DNA from: Escherichia coli | Lineage (GTDB): Bacteria; Pseudomonadota; Gammaproteobacteria; Enterobacterales; Enterobacteriaceae | Strand: one strand, 5' to 3' | NCBI RefSeq assembly: GCF_030384885.1 | Contig: NZ_CP128613.1 | DNA: 64,000 nt | Part shown: in pieces, positions 2,136-15,654 of the stretch | Layout: every line of letters starts with the position of its first letter | How positions within the stretch are numbered: the first letter of the stretch is position 1 | The notes under the pieces: generated by a model | The model's database searches: none | Seen by the model: the letters and a program-made list of their open reading frames with translations, nothing else | Told to the model about the DNA's origin: nothing | Translations under genes and position numbers: made by a program

Positions 2136-3483
2136 GAAATAACTCCTGTAATTGCGCATAGACACGCTTGTTCATACTGTTTACTGGCATTTCATCAATA
2201 ACGCGCCAGTAACGCGGAATAGCAACTGGCTCCAGCGTCGGGCGCAGTAATCGCCGCCAGGCCATTTCCTGGCTGTGCCCGCCGCCGTTTTGCCATTGCA
2301 GGCGAGCTTCGTCATCCAGCACCAGCAAAACGCCAATACTCTGACGCCCGCCGCGCGTAACGGGAACTGCCGCCGCCTCGTGAATACCGTCCAGCGCCAG
2401 CAGACGTTGTTCTACTTCCTGGAGTGAAATGCGTTTTTCTTCAATCTTAACGATGCGTCCGCGACGCCCCATCAGATGGAACTGGCCGTCTTCGCTAAAC
2501 TGCAAGATATCGTCGAGTAACAGGCCGCTATCTTCCTCCATCAGAGGTGAAAAGAGACGAAAGGCATCATCTTCGGCCTGGAACTGCATACCTGGAAAGG
2601 GCCGCCAGCGGCGTTGCTCTTGTTCGCGGTAACGCCAGGCGATGACGCCGGTTTCCGTGCTGCCGTAGATTTCATCAGGCCAGACGCGCAGCCAGCTCGC
2701 GGTGTGTTGTACGTCCTGCCACGGTAGTTCACCGCCAGCGGACAGAAGCACCTGAACGGGGGGCGGGGATAGCTGAGCATCCAGACGCTTCAAAAATGCC
2801 GGGCTGCTGATGAAGATATAGCGATGCTGATGACTCAACGCGGCAAACTGTTCGACATACCAGAGCATGGCGGCATGGAGCGGTAATCCCAGCGCCATGG
2901 GCAGGAAAACGCGAAAAGTCAGGCCGTACAAATGCTGCGGCAATACGGAACCGATGACACGACATCCGGCAAGACGTGCGCCTAATCGTTCAGCCAGCAG
3001 TTCTGCTTCACGGTCCAACAAACGAACAGGTTTAATCACCCGCTTCGGCTGCCCTGTGGAACCAGAGGTAAACAGCTCGATATAAGCGTCTGGCGCTATA
3101 GCGGCAAAGGTGAATGATTGTGTCGCGACTTGTGGGGAGCTTGCTACCAACTGCAATGAACCTTGGCAGTTAAGTTCGCTGTCGCTAAGCACACCATCGA
3201 ACAGTTCACGTTGCTCGTTAAGCTGGATGACGCGGTTATGCCCCGGAAGCACCGGTGTTTTTCCGGCGTGTAGCGTGGCGAGCAGGGCAACGATAAACAG
3301 ATAGCAGTCCTCAAAGCACAGCGCCCAGCGTTCACCTGGTTGTTGCTGTAAACGGCAGATAAGTTGCGAGACATCGTGACGCAAATCGCCCAGCGTCCAG
3401 GTGCTTTCGTCCAGCCACGCAATGGGCGTGTCATCAGAGCGTGGCGCAGTCAGCCAGCGTGCAAGCGGTAAGGTCTGCTTCAT
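2122..3483 (-). CDS. AMP-dependent synthetase/ligase (acyl-ACP/acyl-CoA synthetase-like)
   Basis: TSGSTGQPK AMP-binding motif; start placed at the ATG that overlaps the upstream TGA as ATGA (3480-3483); the track ORF extends to 3522. Confidence 0.8.
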   Translation of the reverse strand: MKQTLPLARWLTAPRSDDTPIAWLDESTWTLGDLRHDVSQLICRLQQQPGERWALCFEDCYLFIVALLATLHAGKTPVLPGHNRVIQLNEQRELFDGVLSDSELNCQGSLQLVASSPQVATQSFTFAAIAPDAYIELFTSGSTGQPKRVIKPVRLLDREAELLAERLGARLAGCRVIGSVLPQHLYGLTFRVFLPMALGLPLHAAMLWYVEQFAALSHQHRYIFISSPAFLKRLDAQLSPPPVQVLLSAGGELPWQDVQHTASWLRVWPDEIYGSTETGVIAWRYREQEQRRWRPFPGMQFQAEDDAFRLFSPLMEEDSGLLLDDILQFSEDGQFHLMGRRGRIVKIEEKRISLQEVEQRLLALDGIHEAAAVPVTRGGRQSIGVLLVLDDEARLQWQNGGGHSQEMAWRRLLRPTLEPVAIPRYWRVIDEMPVNSMNKRVYAQLQELFHEAP

Positions 3484-4061
3484 GAGCGATCTCTTTTCAT
3501 CACCTGACGGCGCACCAGCCATTCACCAGCCATTAACGTCCCCATCAACAAATAAGCAATCATGCCGTTCCAGGCAGTCCATAACGACATATCGCCATGC
3601 AGCGCGGTAAAGAGGGCAATTCCGCCGTTGATGATGAAAAAGCCGCACCAGATTTGCGTGACGTGGCGGGTATAGCGCACGCCCTTTTCCGGGAGGTCTG
3701 GCTCCTGCAAACGCGCCAGCCGCTCAACAATTGGCATTGCCGACCACAGCGAACCGCCAAAAACCGCCAGCATTACCGCGTTAACCACTACCGGGTAAAA
3801 CAGCAGTAGCTGGTGCGTTTTCAACAGAAAGCTGGCAACACACAAGGCGATACCCACAACAGCGACGATTTGTGTGACGGCTTGTAGCGGCCCGGCCTGG
3901 CAACGAGTCTGGCGCAGGCGCAATAAAAGCAGCAGCGCCATCAGCGGCAACAGCCAGTGCAGGCCGTTATGTGCCAAACCAAGCCAAATCACAAACGGCC
4001 AGGCGAGCAGCAATAATCCAGTCAGCAGTTTAATAATCGGTAGCGAGCGAATGCCCGACAT
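3480..4061 (-). CDS. integral membrane protein of the lipid-biosynthesis cluster
   Basis: 193-aa ORF, several hydrophobic segments, co-directional and translationally coupled within the cluster. Confidence 0.7.
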   Translation of the reverse strand: MSGIRSLPIIKLLTGLLLLAWPFVIWLGLAHNGLHWLLPLMALLLLLRLRQTRCQAGPLQAVTQIVAVVGIALCVASFLLKTHQLLLFYPVVVNAVMLAVFGGSLWSAMPIVERLARLQEPDLPEKGVRYTRHVTQIWCGFFIINGGIALFTALHGDMSLWTAWNGMIAYLLMGTLMAGEWLVRRQVMKRDRS

Positions 4062-10997: not shown

Positions 10998-11069
10998 TGA
11001 CTTCTTCCTTTCGATAAACGGCCATAACGGCTCATTCATCCATCTTATCACAACTCTGATAACGAACCT

Positions 11070-11735
11070 TTAACTCGCCTGCAAAGCGTTGATTTCGGAT
11101 TTATCTGCCAGTCTTTTCAACAGCATATTGAGTAATACGCCATACATTGGCAGGAAGAAAACGATACTGATTAACACTTTGAAACAGTAATCGACCAGCG
11201 CGATTTCCATCCAGTGTTCAGCCATAAAGGCATCTGGGCTGCGCCAGAAGGCAATGAAGAAGAAGGCCAGCGTGTCGCTGACGTTACCAAACAGGGTGGA
11301 AGCCGTCGGTGCCAGCCACCAGCGACGACTCTGACGCAGGCGGTTAAAAACGTGCACGTCGAGGATTTGCCCCAGCGCGTAGGCCATGAAACTGGCGGTG
11401 GCGATACGGGCGACAAACAGGTTGAAGTGGGCGAGCGCGCCGAATCCCTGCCAGGAACCCATATAGAACAGCGACGAGATGACGTAGGAGATCAGTAACG
11501 CCGGGATCATCACCGCAAAGATGATACGACGGGCCAGCGGTGCGCCAAAAATACGCACAGTCAGGTCGGTAGCAAGGAAAATAAACGGAAAGCTAAACGC
11601 GCCCCAGGTGGTATGGAAACCAAAAATGGATACGGGAAGCTGAACCAGATAGTTACTGGAGGTGATCACCAACAGATGAAATAACGATAACCAGAACAAC
11701 GCTTTATAGCGTTGAGTTTGCGAGAAAACGTTCAT
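11070..11735 (-). CDS. yhhQ: queuosine-precursor transporter YhhQ
   Basis: 221-aa membrane protein recognised as E. coli YhhQ. Confidence 0.93.
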   Translation of the reverse strand: MNVFSQTQRYKALFWLSLFHLLVITSSNYLVQLPVSIFGFHTTWGAFSFPFIFLATDLTVRIFGAPLARRIIFAVMIPALLISYVISSLFYMGSWQGFGALAHFNLFVARIATASFMAYALGQILDVHVFNRLRQSRRWWLAPTASTLFGNVSDTLAFFFIAFWRSPDAFMAEHWMEIALVDYCFKVLISIVFFLPMYGVLLNMLLKRLADKSEINALQAS

Positions 11736-11954
11736 ATTGTACCTTTTTGATTAACCATTGGGGTGAGGGAACCCAATACGTACGACACGTCTGTTACCTT
11801 AACATAATAACGTGCTGACCCTTTTTTCGAGCCGCCGCATGATACTGCTTTACGTTGACAATGCAATGGTTAATTTTCGCGCAATCGTTAACCTGGTTTG
11901 CTTACGGACTCACAGGGCGTAAACTAGCGCCGTTTTTTATGTGATGAGAAGAAA

Positions 11955-12200
11955 ATGACCGATCTCTTTTCCAGCCCTGACCACACACTCGACGCACTTG
12001 GCCTGCGCTGCCCGGAACCCGTGATGATGGTGCGCAAAACTGTGCGCAATATGCAACCTGGCGAAACGTTGCTGATTATTGCTGATGATCCGGCGACGAC
12101 ACGCGATATTCCTGGGTTTTGTACCTTTATGGAACACGAACTGGTTGCTAAAGAAACGGATGGACTGCCTTATCGTTATTTGATTCGTAAATCGGGGTAA
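11955..12200 (+). CDS. tusA: sulfur carrier protein TusA
   Basis: 81 aa with the CPEP active-site motif ([11 protein letters not shown]); recognised as E. coli TusA. Confidence 0.96.
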
Positions 12201-12254
12201 GGTGGATCAGGCTAGCGGACCGATCGCGCTCAATTTTGCGGCTTGCAACCGGTT

Positions 12255-12391
12255 TGTAGGACGGATAAAACGTTCAAGCTGCATCTGGCGATACGGTGCG
12301 CAATGCCTGATGCGACGCTGTCGCGTCTTATCATGCCTACGAGTTCAATGCCCTGTGTAGGCCAGATAAGGCGTTTACGCCGCATCCGGCA
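12255..12391. repeat. BIME / REP element cluster
   Basis: Copies of the REP palindrome (e.g. tgtaggccagataaggcgtttacgccgcatccggcac and gcctgatgcgacgctgtcgcgtcttatcatgcctac) in the tusA-zntA convergent intergenic region. Confidence 0.8.
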
Positions 12392-12414
12392 CGCAAACGT
12401 AATGGAATGCACAA

Positions 12415-12723
12415 ATGGATTATTTAATTCCAGTTTGTCTGGTATTGCTGGGATTGCTCGCGATCTTCACCCCCAATTGGCTGATCCCTGTTTTTATCGT
12501 CGTGGGGGGATGGCTGGGGGTACTTGCCTGGGGTTGGCTCTGGCTAATGATTTTTTTACCTTTACTTAACGGTGTCGGGCTTGCTTATGCCCTGTGGTTG
12601 ATGTTCAAAAGGCCATCCATAGCATCCCGCCTGGTTGCTGCATGCTGTGTTATCTCCGTCATTCTGATGTTAGCGCTTTATTATGCTTTCCTGACTATGC
12701 CGCCGTTCCCGCCTCAGCACTAA
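12415..12723 (+). CDS. hypothetical small hydrophobic protein (unverified ORF)
   Basis: 102-aa ORF directly after the BIME; Trp/Leu-rich with 2-3 predicted transmembrane segments (GGWLGVLAWGWLWLMIFLPLL); weak Shine-Dalgarno; could be a chance ORF. Confidence 0.3.
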   Translation: MDYLIPVCLVLLGLLAIFTPNWLIPVFIVVGGWLGVLAWGWLWLMIFLPLLNGVGLAYALWLMFKRPSIASRLVAACCVISVILMLALYYAFLTMPPFPPQH

Positions 12724-12755
12724 GCCTGATAGCCAGAGGCTATCAGGCAACACTT

Positions 12756-14954
12756 TTACTTCCTGCGCAACAATCTTAACGCATTCGCTGTCACCAGCAC
12801 CGTCGCACCCGTATCTGCCAGCACCGCCAGCCATAGTCCGGTCATCCCTAACAGCGTTGTGACGAGGAAGATCCCTTTCAGCCCCAGCGCAATGGTGATG
12901 TTCTGGCGGATATTGGCGTGAGTGGCGCGTGCCAGTTCAATCATCTGCACCAGGCCGCGCAGGTGGTTATGGGTTAATGCAGCGTCGGCGGTTTCCAGCG
13001 CCACATCTGTGCCACTGCCCATTGCAATCCCTATGGCGGCAGCTTTCATGGCGGGCGCGTCGTTAATACCGTCACCGACCATCGCCAGAGGCGCATGTTG
13101 ATTCAGCTCGGTCACCGCTTTGACTTTATCTTCTGGTAATAGGCCCGCTTTAAATTTCAGCCCCAGTTCACCGGCGATTGCCGCCGCTGCGTGTGGATTA
13201 TCGCCAGTGAGGATCACTCCTTTGACGCCCAGGGCGCTCAGTTCGCTGATGGCAGTTGCGGCGTCGGCGCGCAGGGTATCCTGCAATGCAATGACACCCA
13301 GCACTTCATCGTTACGCACCACCAGTACTACCGTTTGCCCGGCGCTTTCCAGTTCGTTAATTAAACCAGCAAATGCAACAGCCGGATGTTTTCCGGCAGC
13401 GCATATCAACACGCGCTCACCGTTAATCAGTGCTTCAATACCAGACCCGACCAGCGCCCGCTGTGATTCGGCGGCGGGAATGGCGAGTTCAGCAACCTGT
13501 GCTTCGCGTACGATGGCTTGCGCCAGTGGATGCGTCGCGCCTTGCTCGACCGCCGCTGCCAGTGTCAGCAGTTCAGATTCACTAATACCCGTTGCCGGAT
13601 GAATCGCGGTAACGCGCGGTTTACCGACGGTCAGCGTGCCGGTTTTATCAAACGCCACCTGGGTAACACGACCTAGTTGTTCCAGCGCCGCACCGCCTTT
13701 AATCAACGCCCCATGACGCGCTGCTGCCGCCAGCCCGGAGGTGATCGCCGCAGGTGTTGAGATCACCAGCGCACACGGGCAGCCAATCAGCAGCAGCGTC
13801 AGCCCTTTATAAATCCACTCCTGCCAGCTTGCGGCAAACAGCAGCGGTGGCACCAGCGTCACCAGCAGGGCGACGGCCATAATCGCTGGCGTGTAAATAC
13901 GGCTGAAACGGTCGATAAACCGCTCAATGGGCGCGCGGCGCTCTTCGGCTTCTTCGATCAGTTTCAGAATCCGGTCAATGGCGCTGGCACCCGGTTCTGA
14001 CAGCACTTCCAGCGTTACCAGACGGTCTACGCTGGTGGCGCCTGCAGGAACTTTATCACCCGTCGCGCGCTCCACCGGAATGGATTCGCCGGTCAGGGCG
14101 CTTTCATCAAAACTGGCAAAGGGCGAGAGCAGTTTACCGTCGGCAGGTAAACGCCCACCTGCCGCAACTTCGATAACATCGCCCGGACGCAGGCTGTTAA
14201 TTGCTACCTCTTCACGCTTGCCATTACGCAGGCGCGTGGCGGTTTCCGGTTTCAGCGCCATTAACGCGCTGACCCCTTGACGCGCGCGGCTGGCGGCCCA
14301 GCCTTCCAGTCGTTCACCAATCAAAAACAGCAGCAACACCATCGCAGCTTCAGCCGTTGCGCCAATAAACAGCGCACCAATAGCGGCTACGCTCATTAAG
14401 GTTTCAATAGCGAAGTAGCTGCCGGATTTGATCAGCCGTAATGCCTGACGAGCAATCGGGTACAGCCCAACCAGCGTGGTCGCGATAAACGCCAGTTGAC
14501 CGAACGGATGATTAAACTGCTCCAGACCCCAGCTGATTGCCATCAACACGATTAGCGTAATCAGCGGCAGATTCTCTTTCAGGCGTGATGCTTGCGGTTC
14601 TACGGCTGCCTGTTCATCGCGCAGGGAATAGCCCGCTTTTTGCACCGCAGATTCAACTTGTGCACGGATGTCATTGTCGGCATCAACCACCAGTTTTTCG
14701 GTGGCGAACAGCACCTGCACCTGATTCACGCCTGCAAGCTGGCGCACGGCATTTTCTACCTTGCGCGCGCAGGCGGCGCAGTCCATGCCGCTGACTTTCC
14801 AGCTATAGCGGGTGCCGGAGACGTTTTCAGAGAGCGTTGGCGTGCTGGAACATGCGCCGTCGCAGCAACAGTCGTTGACGTTCTGTACCGTGGTTAGCGG
14901 TTTGAACGCAGAAAATTGAGGGGCTTTCTTGCCGTGATTGTCAGGAGTCGACAT
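12756..14954 (-). CDS. zntA: Zn(II)/Cd(II)/Pb(II)-translocating P-type ATPase ZntA
   Basis: 732 aa; GMDCAACARKVE metal-binding motif, CPC, DKTGT; recognised as E. coli ZntA. Confidence 0.97.
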   Translation of the reverse strand: MSTPDNHGKKAPQFSAFKPLTTVQNVNDCCCDGACSSTPTLSENVSGTRYSWKVSGMDCAACARKVENAVRQLAGVNQVQVLFATEKLVVDADNDIRAQVESAVQKAGYSLRDEQAAVEPQASRLKENLPLITLIVLMAISWGLEQFNHPFGQLAFIATTLVGLYPIARQALRLIKSGSYFAIETLMSVAAIGALFIGATAEAAMVLLLFLIGERLEGWAASRARQGVSALMALKPETATRLRNGKREEVAINSLRPGDVIEVAAGGRLPADGKLLSPFASFDESALTGESIPVERATGDKVPAGATSVDRLVTLEVLSEPGASAIDRILKLIEEAEERRAPIERFIDRFSRIYTPAIMAVALLVTLVPPLLFAASWQEWIYKGLTLLLIGCPCALVISTPAAITSGLAAAARHGALIKGGAALEQLGRVTQVAFDKTGTLTVGKPRVTAIHPATGISESELLTLAAAVEQGATHPLAQAIVREAQVAELAIPAAESQRALVGSGIEALINGERVLICAAGKHPAVAFAGLINELESAGQTVVLVVRNDEVLGVIALQDTLRADAATAISELSALGVKGVILTGDNPHAAAAIAGELGLKFKAGLLPEDKVKAVTELNQHAPLAMVGDGINDAPAMKAAAIGIAMGSGTDVALETADAALTHNHLRGLVQMIELARATHANIRQNITIALGLKGIFLVTTLLGMTGLWLAVLADTGATVLVTANALRLLRRK

Positions 14955-14984
14955 GGCATCCTCCGGTTAAGTTTTTTCTCATTA

Positions 14985-15021
14985 ACCGAAGGATACACTC
15001 TGGAGTCGACTCCAGAGTCAA
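14985..15021 (-). promoter_or_regulatory. zntA promoter with ZntR (MerR-type) operator
   Basis: Perfect 22-bp palindrome ACTCTGGAGTCGACTCCAGAGT (14997-15018) lying between TTGACT and TATCCT hexamers on the zntA strand with a long MerR-type spacer, upstream of the zntA GGAGG/ATG. Confidence 0.8.
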
Positions 15022-15027
15022 GTTTTA

Positions 15028-15654
15028 TCAGAGATACAGCGAGCGGACGATGAGGAAATGTCCGGCAAAGTAGCAGGCCGCAGCAATCGCGTTGTCCGCA
15101 CGGAAGCGTCGGCGATAGTGACTACCCAGCCAGACAAAGTTACTTATAAACAGCAACGAAGCGCCGACAAACGCAGAGAGCGCCGGAGCGGTCGGACGGA
15201 AGAACCACAGTTCACCTGCCAGCCACACCATCACCAGCGTCATGCCGATAAACGTGCAGATAGGCCAACGATACTCTTCCAGACGCGTCCAGATAATCGC
15301 CAGTAACAGCGCACCCAGCACCAGCAACACCAGCGGCAAAGGCCAGAAGAAAGAGAGCGTCATCTGGCTGGCGAAATAGATGGTGTACAACAGGTGCGAG
15401 AGGAAAAACGCGCCGATGGCGTACATCAGACGTTGACGTGGCAACAGGGTTAGCGCATCGCCCAGCAGTGAGGCGCACAGTCCCGCCAGCACCAGATAGC
15501 TAATGGCGTCGAACATCGGCGCTTGCCAGGCCAGCAACAGCAGGAGAAGAAGGGTTAATGGTTTAAATACCCAGCGTTGCCAGGTTGGCCCACGATACGA
15601 TGCATCCACAGATAGCCATGCGGAAAGACAGACAGCGATAAACGACCAAAGCAT
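15028..15654 (-). CDS. yhhN: inner membrane protein YhhN
   Basis: 208-aa multi-pass membrane protein, recognised as E. coli YhhN. Confidence 0.9.

Follow-up and report, generated by a model that had tools for sequence, protein, structure and literature searches.

A candidate ancestral membrane-protein gene between tusA and zntA, deleted from most Escherichia coli

The tusA–zntA interval

The window, by which we mean the whole 64,000-nucleotide stretch of Escherichia coli contig NZ_CP128613.1 that was analysed, contains an open reading frame of 102 codons running on the + strand from an ATG at 12415 to a TAA stop at 12721–12723, with dcrB, yhhQ, tusA and zntA as its gene neighbours. The features on which the argument depends are these:

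11955–12200, + strand: tusA (sulfurtransferase TusA), the co-oriented upstream gene, as annotated by RefSeq in an identical record
12259–12394, no strand assigned: REP/BIME cluster between tusA and the ORF, with naRNA4-like matches at 12259–12337 and 12360–12394
12400–12414, + strand: translation-initiation region, with an in-frame TAA at 12400–12402, GGA at 12404–12406 and weak Shine–Dalgarno pairing
12415–12723, + strand: the ORF, coding sequence of a predicted 102-residue four-helix membrane protein, RefSeq WP_000385061.1 ‘hypothetical protein’
12418–12474, + strand: ancient duplication, copy 1, helix 1 (DYLIPVCLVLLGLLAIFTP, residues 2–20), absent from the distant homologue P0039
12475–12531, + strand: ancient duplication, copy 2, helix 2 (NWLIPVFIVVGGWLGVLAW, residues 21–39), equivalent to the N-terminal helix of P0039
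12724–12748, no strand assigned: hairpin with a perfect 11-bp stem and a 3-nt loop (inverted repeat I2, folding energy)
12756–14954, − strand: zntA (Zn/Cd/Pb P-type ATPase), the convergent downstream neighbour, from the RefSeq annotation

The original prediction described a Trp- and Leu-rich reading frame in the convergent interval between tusA and zntA, and this description holds: the product has 22 Leu and 6 Trp, with a computed GRAVY of +1.47, and its charged or ionisable residues are limited to D2, K65, R66, R72 and H102. Codon usage had been judged reasonable, and the GC content of 0.49 (0.55 at third positions) does lie inside the range of the adjoining genes. The in-frame TAA at 12400–12402 rules out a longer N-terminus and makes the ATG at 12415 the first possible start. 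The length of the frame is by itself no evidence of a gene, since five other ORFs of at least 100 residues occur in non-gene frames within the 4.5 kb from 11000 to 15500. A third-frame ORF (12243–12569, beginning MECTNGLF) overlaps the 102-codon frame.

The ORF abuts the REP cluster as proposed, although the final REP, which ends at 12394, is separated from the ATG by about 20 nt and not by the 15 bp first stated. In the Escherichia loci the spacer between tusA and the ORF measures 136–253 nt, is made up largely of REP elements and varies among lineages in REP copy number. An Rfam search of 11700–12900 returned no family within the ORF and only two matches upstream, both below the gathering score, to naRNA4, which we take to be REP-derived. 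Across loci the 15 nt leading up to the ATG follow the conserved pattern GT[A/T]ATGGAAT[G/A]CA..A, with the GGA at −11 to −9 invariant in 13 of the 13 loci compared and the GGAAT motif also kept in locus L010. The pairing of this region with the anti-Shine–Dalgarno sequence is weak, no better than that of random 22-mers, with a duplex energy of −3.3 kcal/mol (−2.7 for tusA and −3.9 for yhhQ).

How would such a gene be expressed? A promoter scan of 11700–12900 found no sigma-70-like promoter, and in the distant relative described below only 35 nt separate the gene from tusA; together these point to read-through, so that the ORF is probably co-transcribed with tusA across the REP elements. The hairpin at 12724–12748 begins 1 nt past the ORF stop and ends 7 nt short of the zntA stop, and is predicted to fold at −20.6 kcal/mol on the + strand (z = −6.0) and −20.3 kcal/mol on the − strand. 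Because just four U follow the stem, it escaped a simple scan for terminators; it nevertheless looks like a shared terminator or 3′-end stabiliser for the two convergent genes. The tusA transcript would then probably read through the REP elements into the ORF and end at the hairpin held in common with zntA.

Two or three hydrophobic helices had been expected in the protein. AlphaFold2, run on an alignment of 18 sequences, places four, at residues 4–18, 21–39, 41–65 and 69–93 (pLDDT 77.8, pTM 0.62), and hydropathy agrees on this number. The sole basic cluster, K65-R66...R72, falls between helices 3 and 4. According to the positive-inside rule basic loops are cytoplasmic, so this loop would face the cytoplasm and both the N- and the C-terminus would lie in the periplasm. 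Residues M1, Y3–L9 and L11–L14 are invariant among the intact proteins aligned, and the C-terminal tail carries a conserved FP(A/P)QH motif, which in the window ends the protein as PPFPPQH. The membrane part is devoid of conserved polar or catalytic residues and shows instead small, Pro and Gly positions typical of helix packing; none of the conserved residues suggests catalysis or ion binding inside the membrane.

Selection, distribution and loss

All 14 distinct DNA alleles that we compared, drawn from E. coli, E. albertii, E. whittamii and other Escherichia assemblies, share the start, the stop and the length of 102 codons. Substitutions counted by the Nei–Gojobori method along the minimum spanning tree of these alleles gave Sd = 94 and Nd = 111 over S = 75 and N = 231 sites, hence an omega of 0.38 (binomial p against neutrality 2.8e-11); dN is clearly below dS, the synonymous-dominant pattern that the original prediction had named as a check. 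Read in its two remaining forward frames, this DNA yields omega values of 0.89 and 1.37, and the variable sites are distributed over codon positions 1, 2 and 3 as 22, 16 and 39 (p = 0.004). Among the forward frames, purifying selection acts in this one only. The protein evolves much faster than its neighbours: across the genome pairs compared its dN is 0.05–0.09, and that of tusA and yhhQ 0–0.03. Its dS in these pairs is below that of the neighbouring genes, a difference that may be sampling noise, as the synonymous sites number only about 75, or may stem from some nucleotide-level constraint.

Far from being unannotated, which was one of the options first considered, the gene already has its place in the databases as a hypothetical protein. 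Over 651 bases around the ORF the sequence matches E. coli 2013C-4282 with 100% identity, and for that strain RefSeq lists tusA, then, precisely where the ORF lies, the ‘hypothetical protein’ WP_000385061.1, and after it zntA. In other strains the locus carries allelic orthologues, the RefSeq/PGAP hypothetical proteins WP_000385056.1 and WP_000385059.1, and the UniRef entries are A0A0L7AHN6 and A0A1M2T030. None of these entries is linked to a function, a family or a publication, and full-text searches on the accessions, on DUF2004 and on the tusA/zntA context returned nothing relevant. With its DNA 100% identical to the annotated coding sequence, the window copy belongs to the WP_000385061 group, taken at full-length identity of at least about 83%, whose other full-length members are 83–97% identical.

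A sensitive blastn search found the ORF in 317 of 5426 complete E. coli genomes, always in single copy and chromosomal, with allele identities of at least 99% in 91 genomes, 95–99% in 173 and 90–95% in 53, the last band taking in O145:H28 strains. The remaining 5109 genomes (~94%) are without it. Scanning GTDB, with a single genome for each species, added intact orthologues at the same position in E. albertii, E. whittamii, Escherichia sp. E1V33, Escherichia sp. MOD1-EC7003 and strain SCPM-O-B-8794, and five further loci with the same arrangement encode proteins sourced to E. coli, E. marmotae, Escherichia sp. E4742 and multi-species Escherichia. Of the possibilities raised originally, a strain-specific small membrane protein is thus the one favoured, given its presence in a minority of E. 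coli and in at least five other species-level Escherichia genomes, the selection on its frame and its homologue. The gene is found neither in phages (0 of 50,697 records) nor on true plasmids, for the plasmid collection gave a single match, to a record of 4.9 Mb that is evidently a mislabelled chromosome.

The position of the gene is equally constant. In all loci inspected (L001, L002, L005–L013 and L021–L025) tusA lies upstream on the same strand, and convergent zntA follows directly in the window and in L001, L002, L011, L013 and L021–L025. In L007 and L012 a gene of 164–165 residues sits between the ORF and zntA. This neighbour is acidic, unrelated to the ORF and itself gained or lost among genomes; RefSeq calls it DUF2004 in some of them, a name that our Pfam search did not reproduce, and no PDB relative of it was found.

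What happened to the gene in the bulk of E. coli can be read from two types of spacer that are without the ORF. The polymorphic segment begins within the last two codons of tusA, so aligned, and the window TusA ends in ...RKSG where the K-12 type ends in ...RKGG. In the ATCC 25922-type spacer the ORF is gone, but the REPs are still there, as is one arm (CTGATAGCC) of the hairpin that lies downstream. The K-12-type spacer between tusA and zntA amounts to 101 bp, reaching from just before the first REP to the end of zntA, and all that is left in it is a short stretch resembling the remains of a REP. This also bears out the statement that K-12 has no annotated gene here, because K-12-type genomes miss that DNA altogether. 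Orthologues in other Escherichia species, taken together with the deletion scars, show that E. coli lineages lost the gene, by at least two different deletions, and that the window strain did not gain it. The ancestor of the genus Escherichia already had the gene at this position, between tusA and zntA, and most E. coli have deleted it since; the spacer is a presence/absence polymorphism in which the window strain keeps the ancestral gene.

Frameshifts or truncations affect a minority of alleles (P0023, P0026–P0028, P0030–P0037), several of them at runs of G6, G5 or T7, and in the frameshifted ones gene callers fuse the third-frame ORF (MECTNGLF...) to the conserved C-terminal half. Frameshifts in relatives had been named at the outset as grounds for giving up the gene; they do exist, but only in this small minority. 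The fast evolution of the protein, the broken alleles and the loss from ~94% of E. coli, at no evident cost, mark the gene as presumably dispensable, weakly constrained and non-essential.

Could the window copy then be a decaying relic, functional in the ancestor of Escherichia, effectively neutral in present-day E. coli and by now without function? The absence from 5109 of 5426 complete genomes through two or more different deletions, an omega far above that of the neighbouring genes, the frameshifts at homopolymer runs, the weak Shine–Dalgarno pairing and the lack of a promoter in the scanned region would all accord with such decay. Against it stand the integrity of all 14 alleles over their 102 codons and the predominance of intact forms in a large protein collection, where the exact window protein occurs on 410 contigs and a sister sequence on at least 1000, under hypothetical or uncharacterised names, while each frameshifted form is confined to 1–12 contigs. 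Omega is, moreover, significantly below 1 in each of three segments of the protein (0.45 for residues 1–20, 0.57 for 21–46 and 0.29 for 47–102). We therefore consider decay improbable, though it is the most serious of the alternatives. The reading that we prefer, to which we give a probability of about 0.8, is that the ORF is a real, translated gene for an inner-membrane protein, ancestral and frequently lost.

A distant homologue and an internal duplication

One distant homologue, the 83-residue P0039 (E = 1.8e-5 database-wide; 37% identity to the window protein, pairwise E = 6e-16), emerged when a profile was searched against the full set of 1.84 billion representative proteins. The remaining matches were the protein's own cluster and its fragments, plus a single 360-residue protein that is repetitive and does not look related. 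The gene for P0039 lies on a 1.4-kb contig from Logan run ERR10299652 and starts 35 nt after tusA on the same strand; we describe the contig as Superficieibacter-like, as its TusA shares a 90% cluster with Superficieibacter TusA. Used as a query, P0039 returned only itself, a singleton among 5.8 billion clusters, and at other tusA loci of the same TusA cluster, some of them named Superficieibacter, no gene is called downstream.

The similarity is confined to the reading frame of the protein. When all six frames of one sequence were compared with all six of the other, only the pairing of frame 0 with frame 0 scored (148), the other 35 pairs reaching at most 40 and 500 shuffles giving a mean of 36 and a maximum of 72. 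A tblastn search of P0039 against the 7.3 Gb of DNA in the plasmid collection likewise found only the E. coli ORF, in this frame. P0039 aligns from residue 21 to residue 102 of the window protein and keeps both the start context (GGAAT) and the FPAQH-stop ending. Conserved in the two genera are L23, P25, G32, W33, L44, F47, G55, L60, M63, R72, L73, S81, L84, M85, L88, F98, P99, Q101 and the C-terminal His. The two proteins are thus alike in their position downstream of tusA, in the three C-terminal helices and in the R72-L73, S81 and FP(A)QH motifs, and they differ in that P0039 has three helices against four and a Lys at residue 2 in place of Asp.

The origin of the additional helix can be read from the DNA itself. 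The segments 12418–12474 and 12475–12531 are identical at 32 of 57 bases, while other in-frame offsets give 9–23. This self-similarity at an offset of 57, together with the alignment of P0039 from residue 21 only, shows that an ancient 57-nt (19-codon) tandem duplication added an N-terminal helix to the Escherichia form. The change of residue 2 from Lys to Asp would fit a shift of the N-terminus from the cytoplasm to the periplasm. The gene is a lineage-restricted orphan with one detectable relative, the 83-residue three-helix form of a Superficieibacter-like enterobacterium.

Possible roles of the encoded protein

What might such a protein do? Comparison with known families gives little to build on. 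Pfam and PADLOC-DB hold no family or model matching at E ≤ 1, the sole PHROG match (E = 0.59) is to a family of unknown function, and a PDB profile search produced only 6u8y_B at E = 1.3. The one family giving any score is NCBIfam NF009243, the MrpF/MnhF/PhaF subunit F of monovalent cation/H+ antiporters, which matched residues 45–91 (17.1 bits, E = 0.0069). Its members are similar in size (84–91 residues) and likewise polytopic, but the score compares with a cut-off of 95 bits, there is no mrp/mnh/pha operon, and no MrpF-type subunit is among the structure matches listed; we reject this assignment.

Other candidates fare no better. Transporters of the SMR type (EmrE/SugE) have a membrane-embedded Glu in helix 1; the window protein contains no Glu and has no Pfam match to them. 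A phage holin is contradicted by the empty phage records, the lack of a PHROG holin match and a PPFPPQH tail free of any charge cluster. Type I toxin peptides are under about 60 residues, with a single helix and an overlapping antisense RNA, whereas here we have 102 residues and four helices, and no Rfam antitoxin RNA in 11700–12900. No PADLOC-DB model supports a component of anti-phage defence, and on reading the sequence the IPVC motif is not a lipobox and no basic n-region precedes it, which disposes of a lipoprotein signal.

With no polar or charged residues inside the membrane, and conservation at Gly, Pro, Ser and aromatic residues of the kind expected for helix packing, the 102-residue protein is unlikely to be a transporter or an enzyme itself. 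These same properties underlie our tentative guess, the best on offer though short of an even chance, that, in the manner of many small membrane proteins of bacteria, it may pack against a larger protein of the membrane and serve it as an accessory or modulatory subunit. Small accessory proteins of the enterobacterial inner membrane such as AcrZ, KdpF, CydX and MgtS, of 30–50 residues and one helix, each have a demonstrated partner. They too are small, very hydrophobic, free of catalytic residues, dispensable and encoded beside or inside the operons of larger membrane or metabolic systems; the protein described here differs in its 102 residues and four helices, and the likeness is not known to extend to sequence similarity.

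A different role, quite unlikely in our judgement, is that of an orphan immunity-type protein directed against a membrane-targeting bacteriocin or microcin and kept or lost according to ecological exposure. The small size, strong hydrophobicity, fast evolution, patchy distribution and lack of conserved polar residues may be taken, by inference only, to suit this role, and so may the unrelated acidic 165-residue gene that adjoins in some genomes and is likewise gained or lost. The surroundings argue otherwise: toxin and export genes are lacking nearby, there are no true plasmid copies and no phage copies, and no PADLOC or PHROG family matches, so that membership in a known bacteriocin or microcin immunity group is rejected; the chromosomal position is also fixed across the genus, unlike that of most bacteriocin modules.

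The constant association with tusA raises the question of a membrane partner of TusA that would tether or modulate the sulfur relay at the inner membrane. There is precedent in the TusA-like protein YeeD, which works with the thiosulfate transporter YeeE. The only evidence in this case is positional, the gene lying always downstream of tusA on the same strand and within 35 nt of it on the P0039 contig, and we put this possibility slightly below that of an immunity role. Were it true, the partnership would be ancestral in Escherichia and dispensed with by most E. coli.

It is also very unlikely that the functional product consists of the C-terminal 58 residues from Met45 (12547), with the N-terminal half serving as a variable leader. 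Residues 47–102 are indeed the best conserved, the frameshifted alleles hold the C-terminal part in frame, and one E. albertii annotation (P0031) begins at Met45. The homology to P0039 nevertheless begins well before this point, at residue 21, and both residues 1–20 (p = 0.009) and residues 21–46 (p = 0.023) are themselves under purifying selection, with the invariant M1, Y3–L9 and L11–L14 among the former. Weakest of all is the notion of a chance ORF in non-coding DNA conserved for the zntA 3′ end, an antisense RNA or a REP flank, for although long spurious frames are common in the region, a third-frame ORF overlaps this one and the low dS hints at nucleotide-level constraint, the frame is preserved, selection is specific to it, no Rfam family lies inside it and the homologue is visible only as protein and only in this frame, with start context and ending retained, so that this option from the original prediction is rejected.

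The finding of a real, ancestral and frequently lost membrane-protein gene explains an ORF that is unexpected to readers with K-12 in mind, and its practical value is small. The gene belongs to no new kind of system. Beyond the catalogue entry, the analysis adds the loss history, the single distant homologue and the helix-adding duplication. For the pangenome it represents a rare orphan family of membrane proteins, with one relative outside its own cluster among 1.84 billion representative proteins, and for the evolution of membrane proteins it offers a case in which a tandem duplication of 19 codons turned a three-helix protein into a four-helix one. The frequent loss of the gene argues for a conditional or minor function, and any function that it may have would be new knowledge.

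Repeats and hairpin flanking the gene

The polymorphic segment begins in the last two codons of tusA (window 12193-12260 compared with L003 and L004, the K-12-type and ATCC 25922-type loci from which the gene is deleted). TusA terminates in ...RKSG in the window and in E. albertii, and in ...RKGG in the K-12 and ATCC 25922 types. Downstream of tusA, the latter two loci carry the repeat CCCTCTCCCCAGAGGGGCGAGGGGACCGATCG, which we read as a BoxC-like element; the window keeps only its 3' part, AGGCTAGCGGACCGATCG. The two REP elements that follow in the window, at 12259-12337 and 12360-12394, match the Rfam family RF02564 (naRNA4/CssrE) at 52.7 and 34.1 bits, respectively, both below the gathering score of 59.5 bits. 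On the other side of the gene, the three-nucleotide loop of the hairpin (window 12735-12737) reads AGA in the window; E. whittamii (L009) and the remnant left in ATCC 25922 (L004) both have TCT at this position, a difference that inversion of the hairpin tip would be expected to produce.

Overlapping frame and translation start

Another reading frame is open across the REPs and the first half of the gene:

12243-12569, + strand, 108-aa ORF in another frame

Its inner part begins at the ATG at 12402 (MECTNGLFNSS...), and in frameshifted alleles (e.g. P0023, P0026, P0027 and P0030) it is this part that gene callers fuse to the conserved C-terminal half. Near the start of the gene itself, two Escherichia lineages (loci L006 and L023) display a short duplication of the start-proximal motif TGGAATGCAAAGGAATG, located ~22 nt before the start codon, which gives a stronger Shine-Dalgarno match (-5.6 to -6.2 vs -3.3 kcal/mol).

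An acidic gene before zntA

The window is devoid of an acidic gene of 162-165 aa that separates the small ORF from zntA in E. albertii, E. coli GF4-3 and a Superficieibacter-like contig.

Acidic genes located between the small ORF and zntA
L007 (E. albertii), 3369-3866, - strand
L012 (E. coli GF4-3), 1885-2379, - strand
L010 (Superficieibacter-like contig), 688-1176, - strand

In the Superficieibacter-like contig the stop codons of the two genes overlap, and in Escherichia sp. MOD1-EC7003 (L008) there is matching sequence downstream. RefSeq names the acidic gene 'DUF2004 domain-containing', a label not reproduced in our Pfam search, which returned no match; a search for a relative in the PDB likewise found none.

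Uneven divergence and a probable mosaic locus

The sole 'plasmid' match for the small gene is a 4.94-Mb E. coli record in PLSDB (NZ_CP141089.1), which is evidently a chromosome. The EC1515 allele of the ORF, from the 92.2% identity band to which O145:H28 strains also belong, is separated by just 6 nt from the allele in Escherichia sp. E1V33. When the window strain is compared with two other E. coli, CB7453 and THO-008 (loci L002 and L013), dS is ~0.25 in tusA (window 11955-12200); for these pairs, the 102-codon ORF next to tusA shows no more than 5 nt of difference and yhhQ has a dS of 0.08-0.10. Such uneven divergence between neighbouring genes points to a mosaic, recombined locus.
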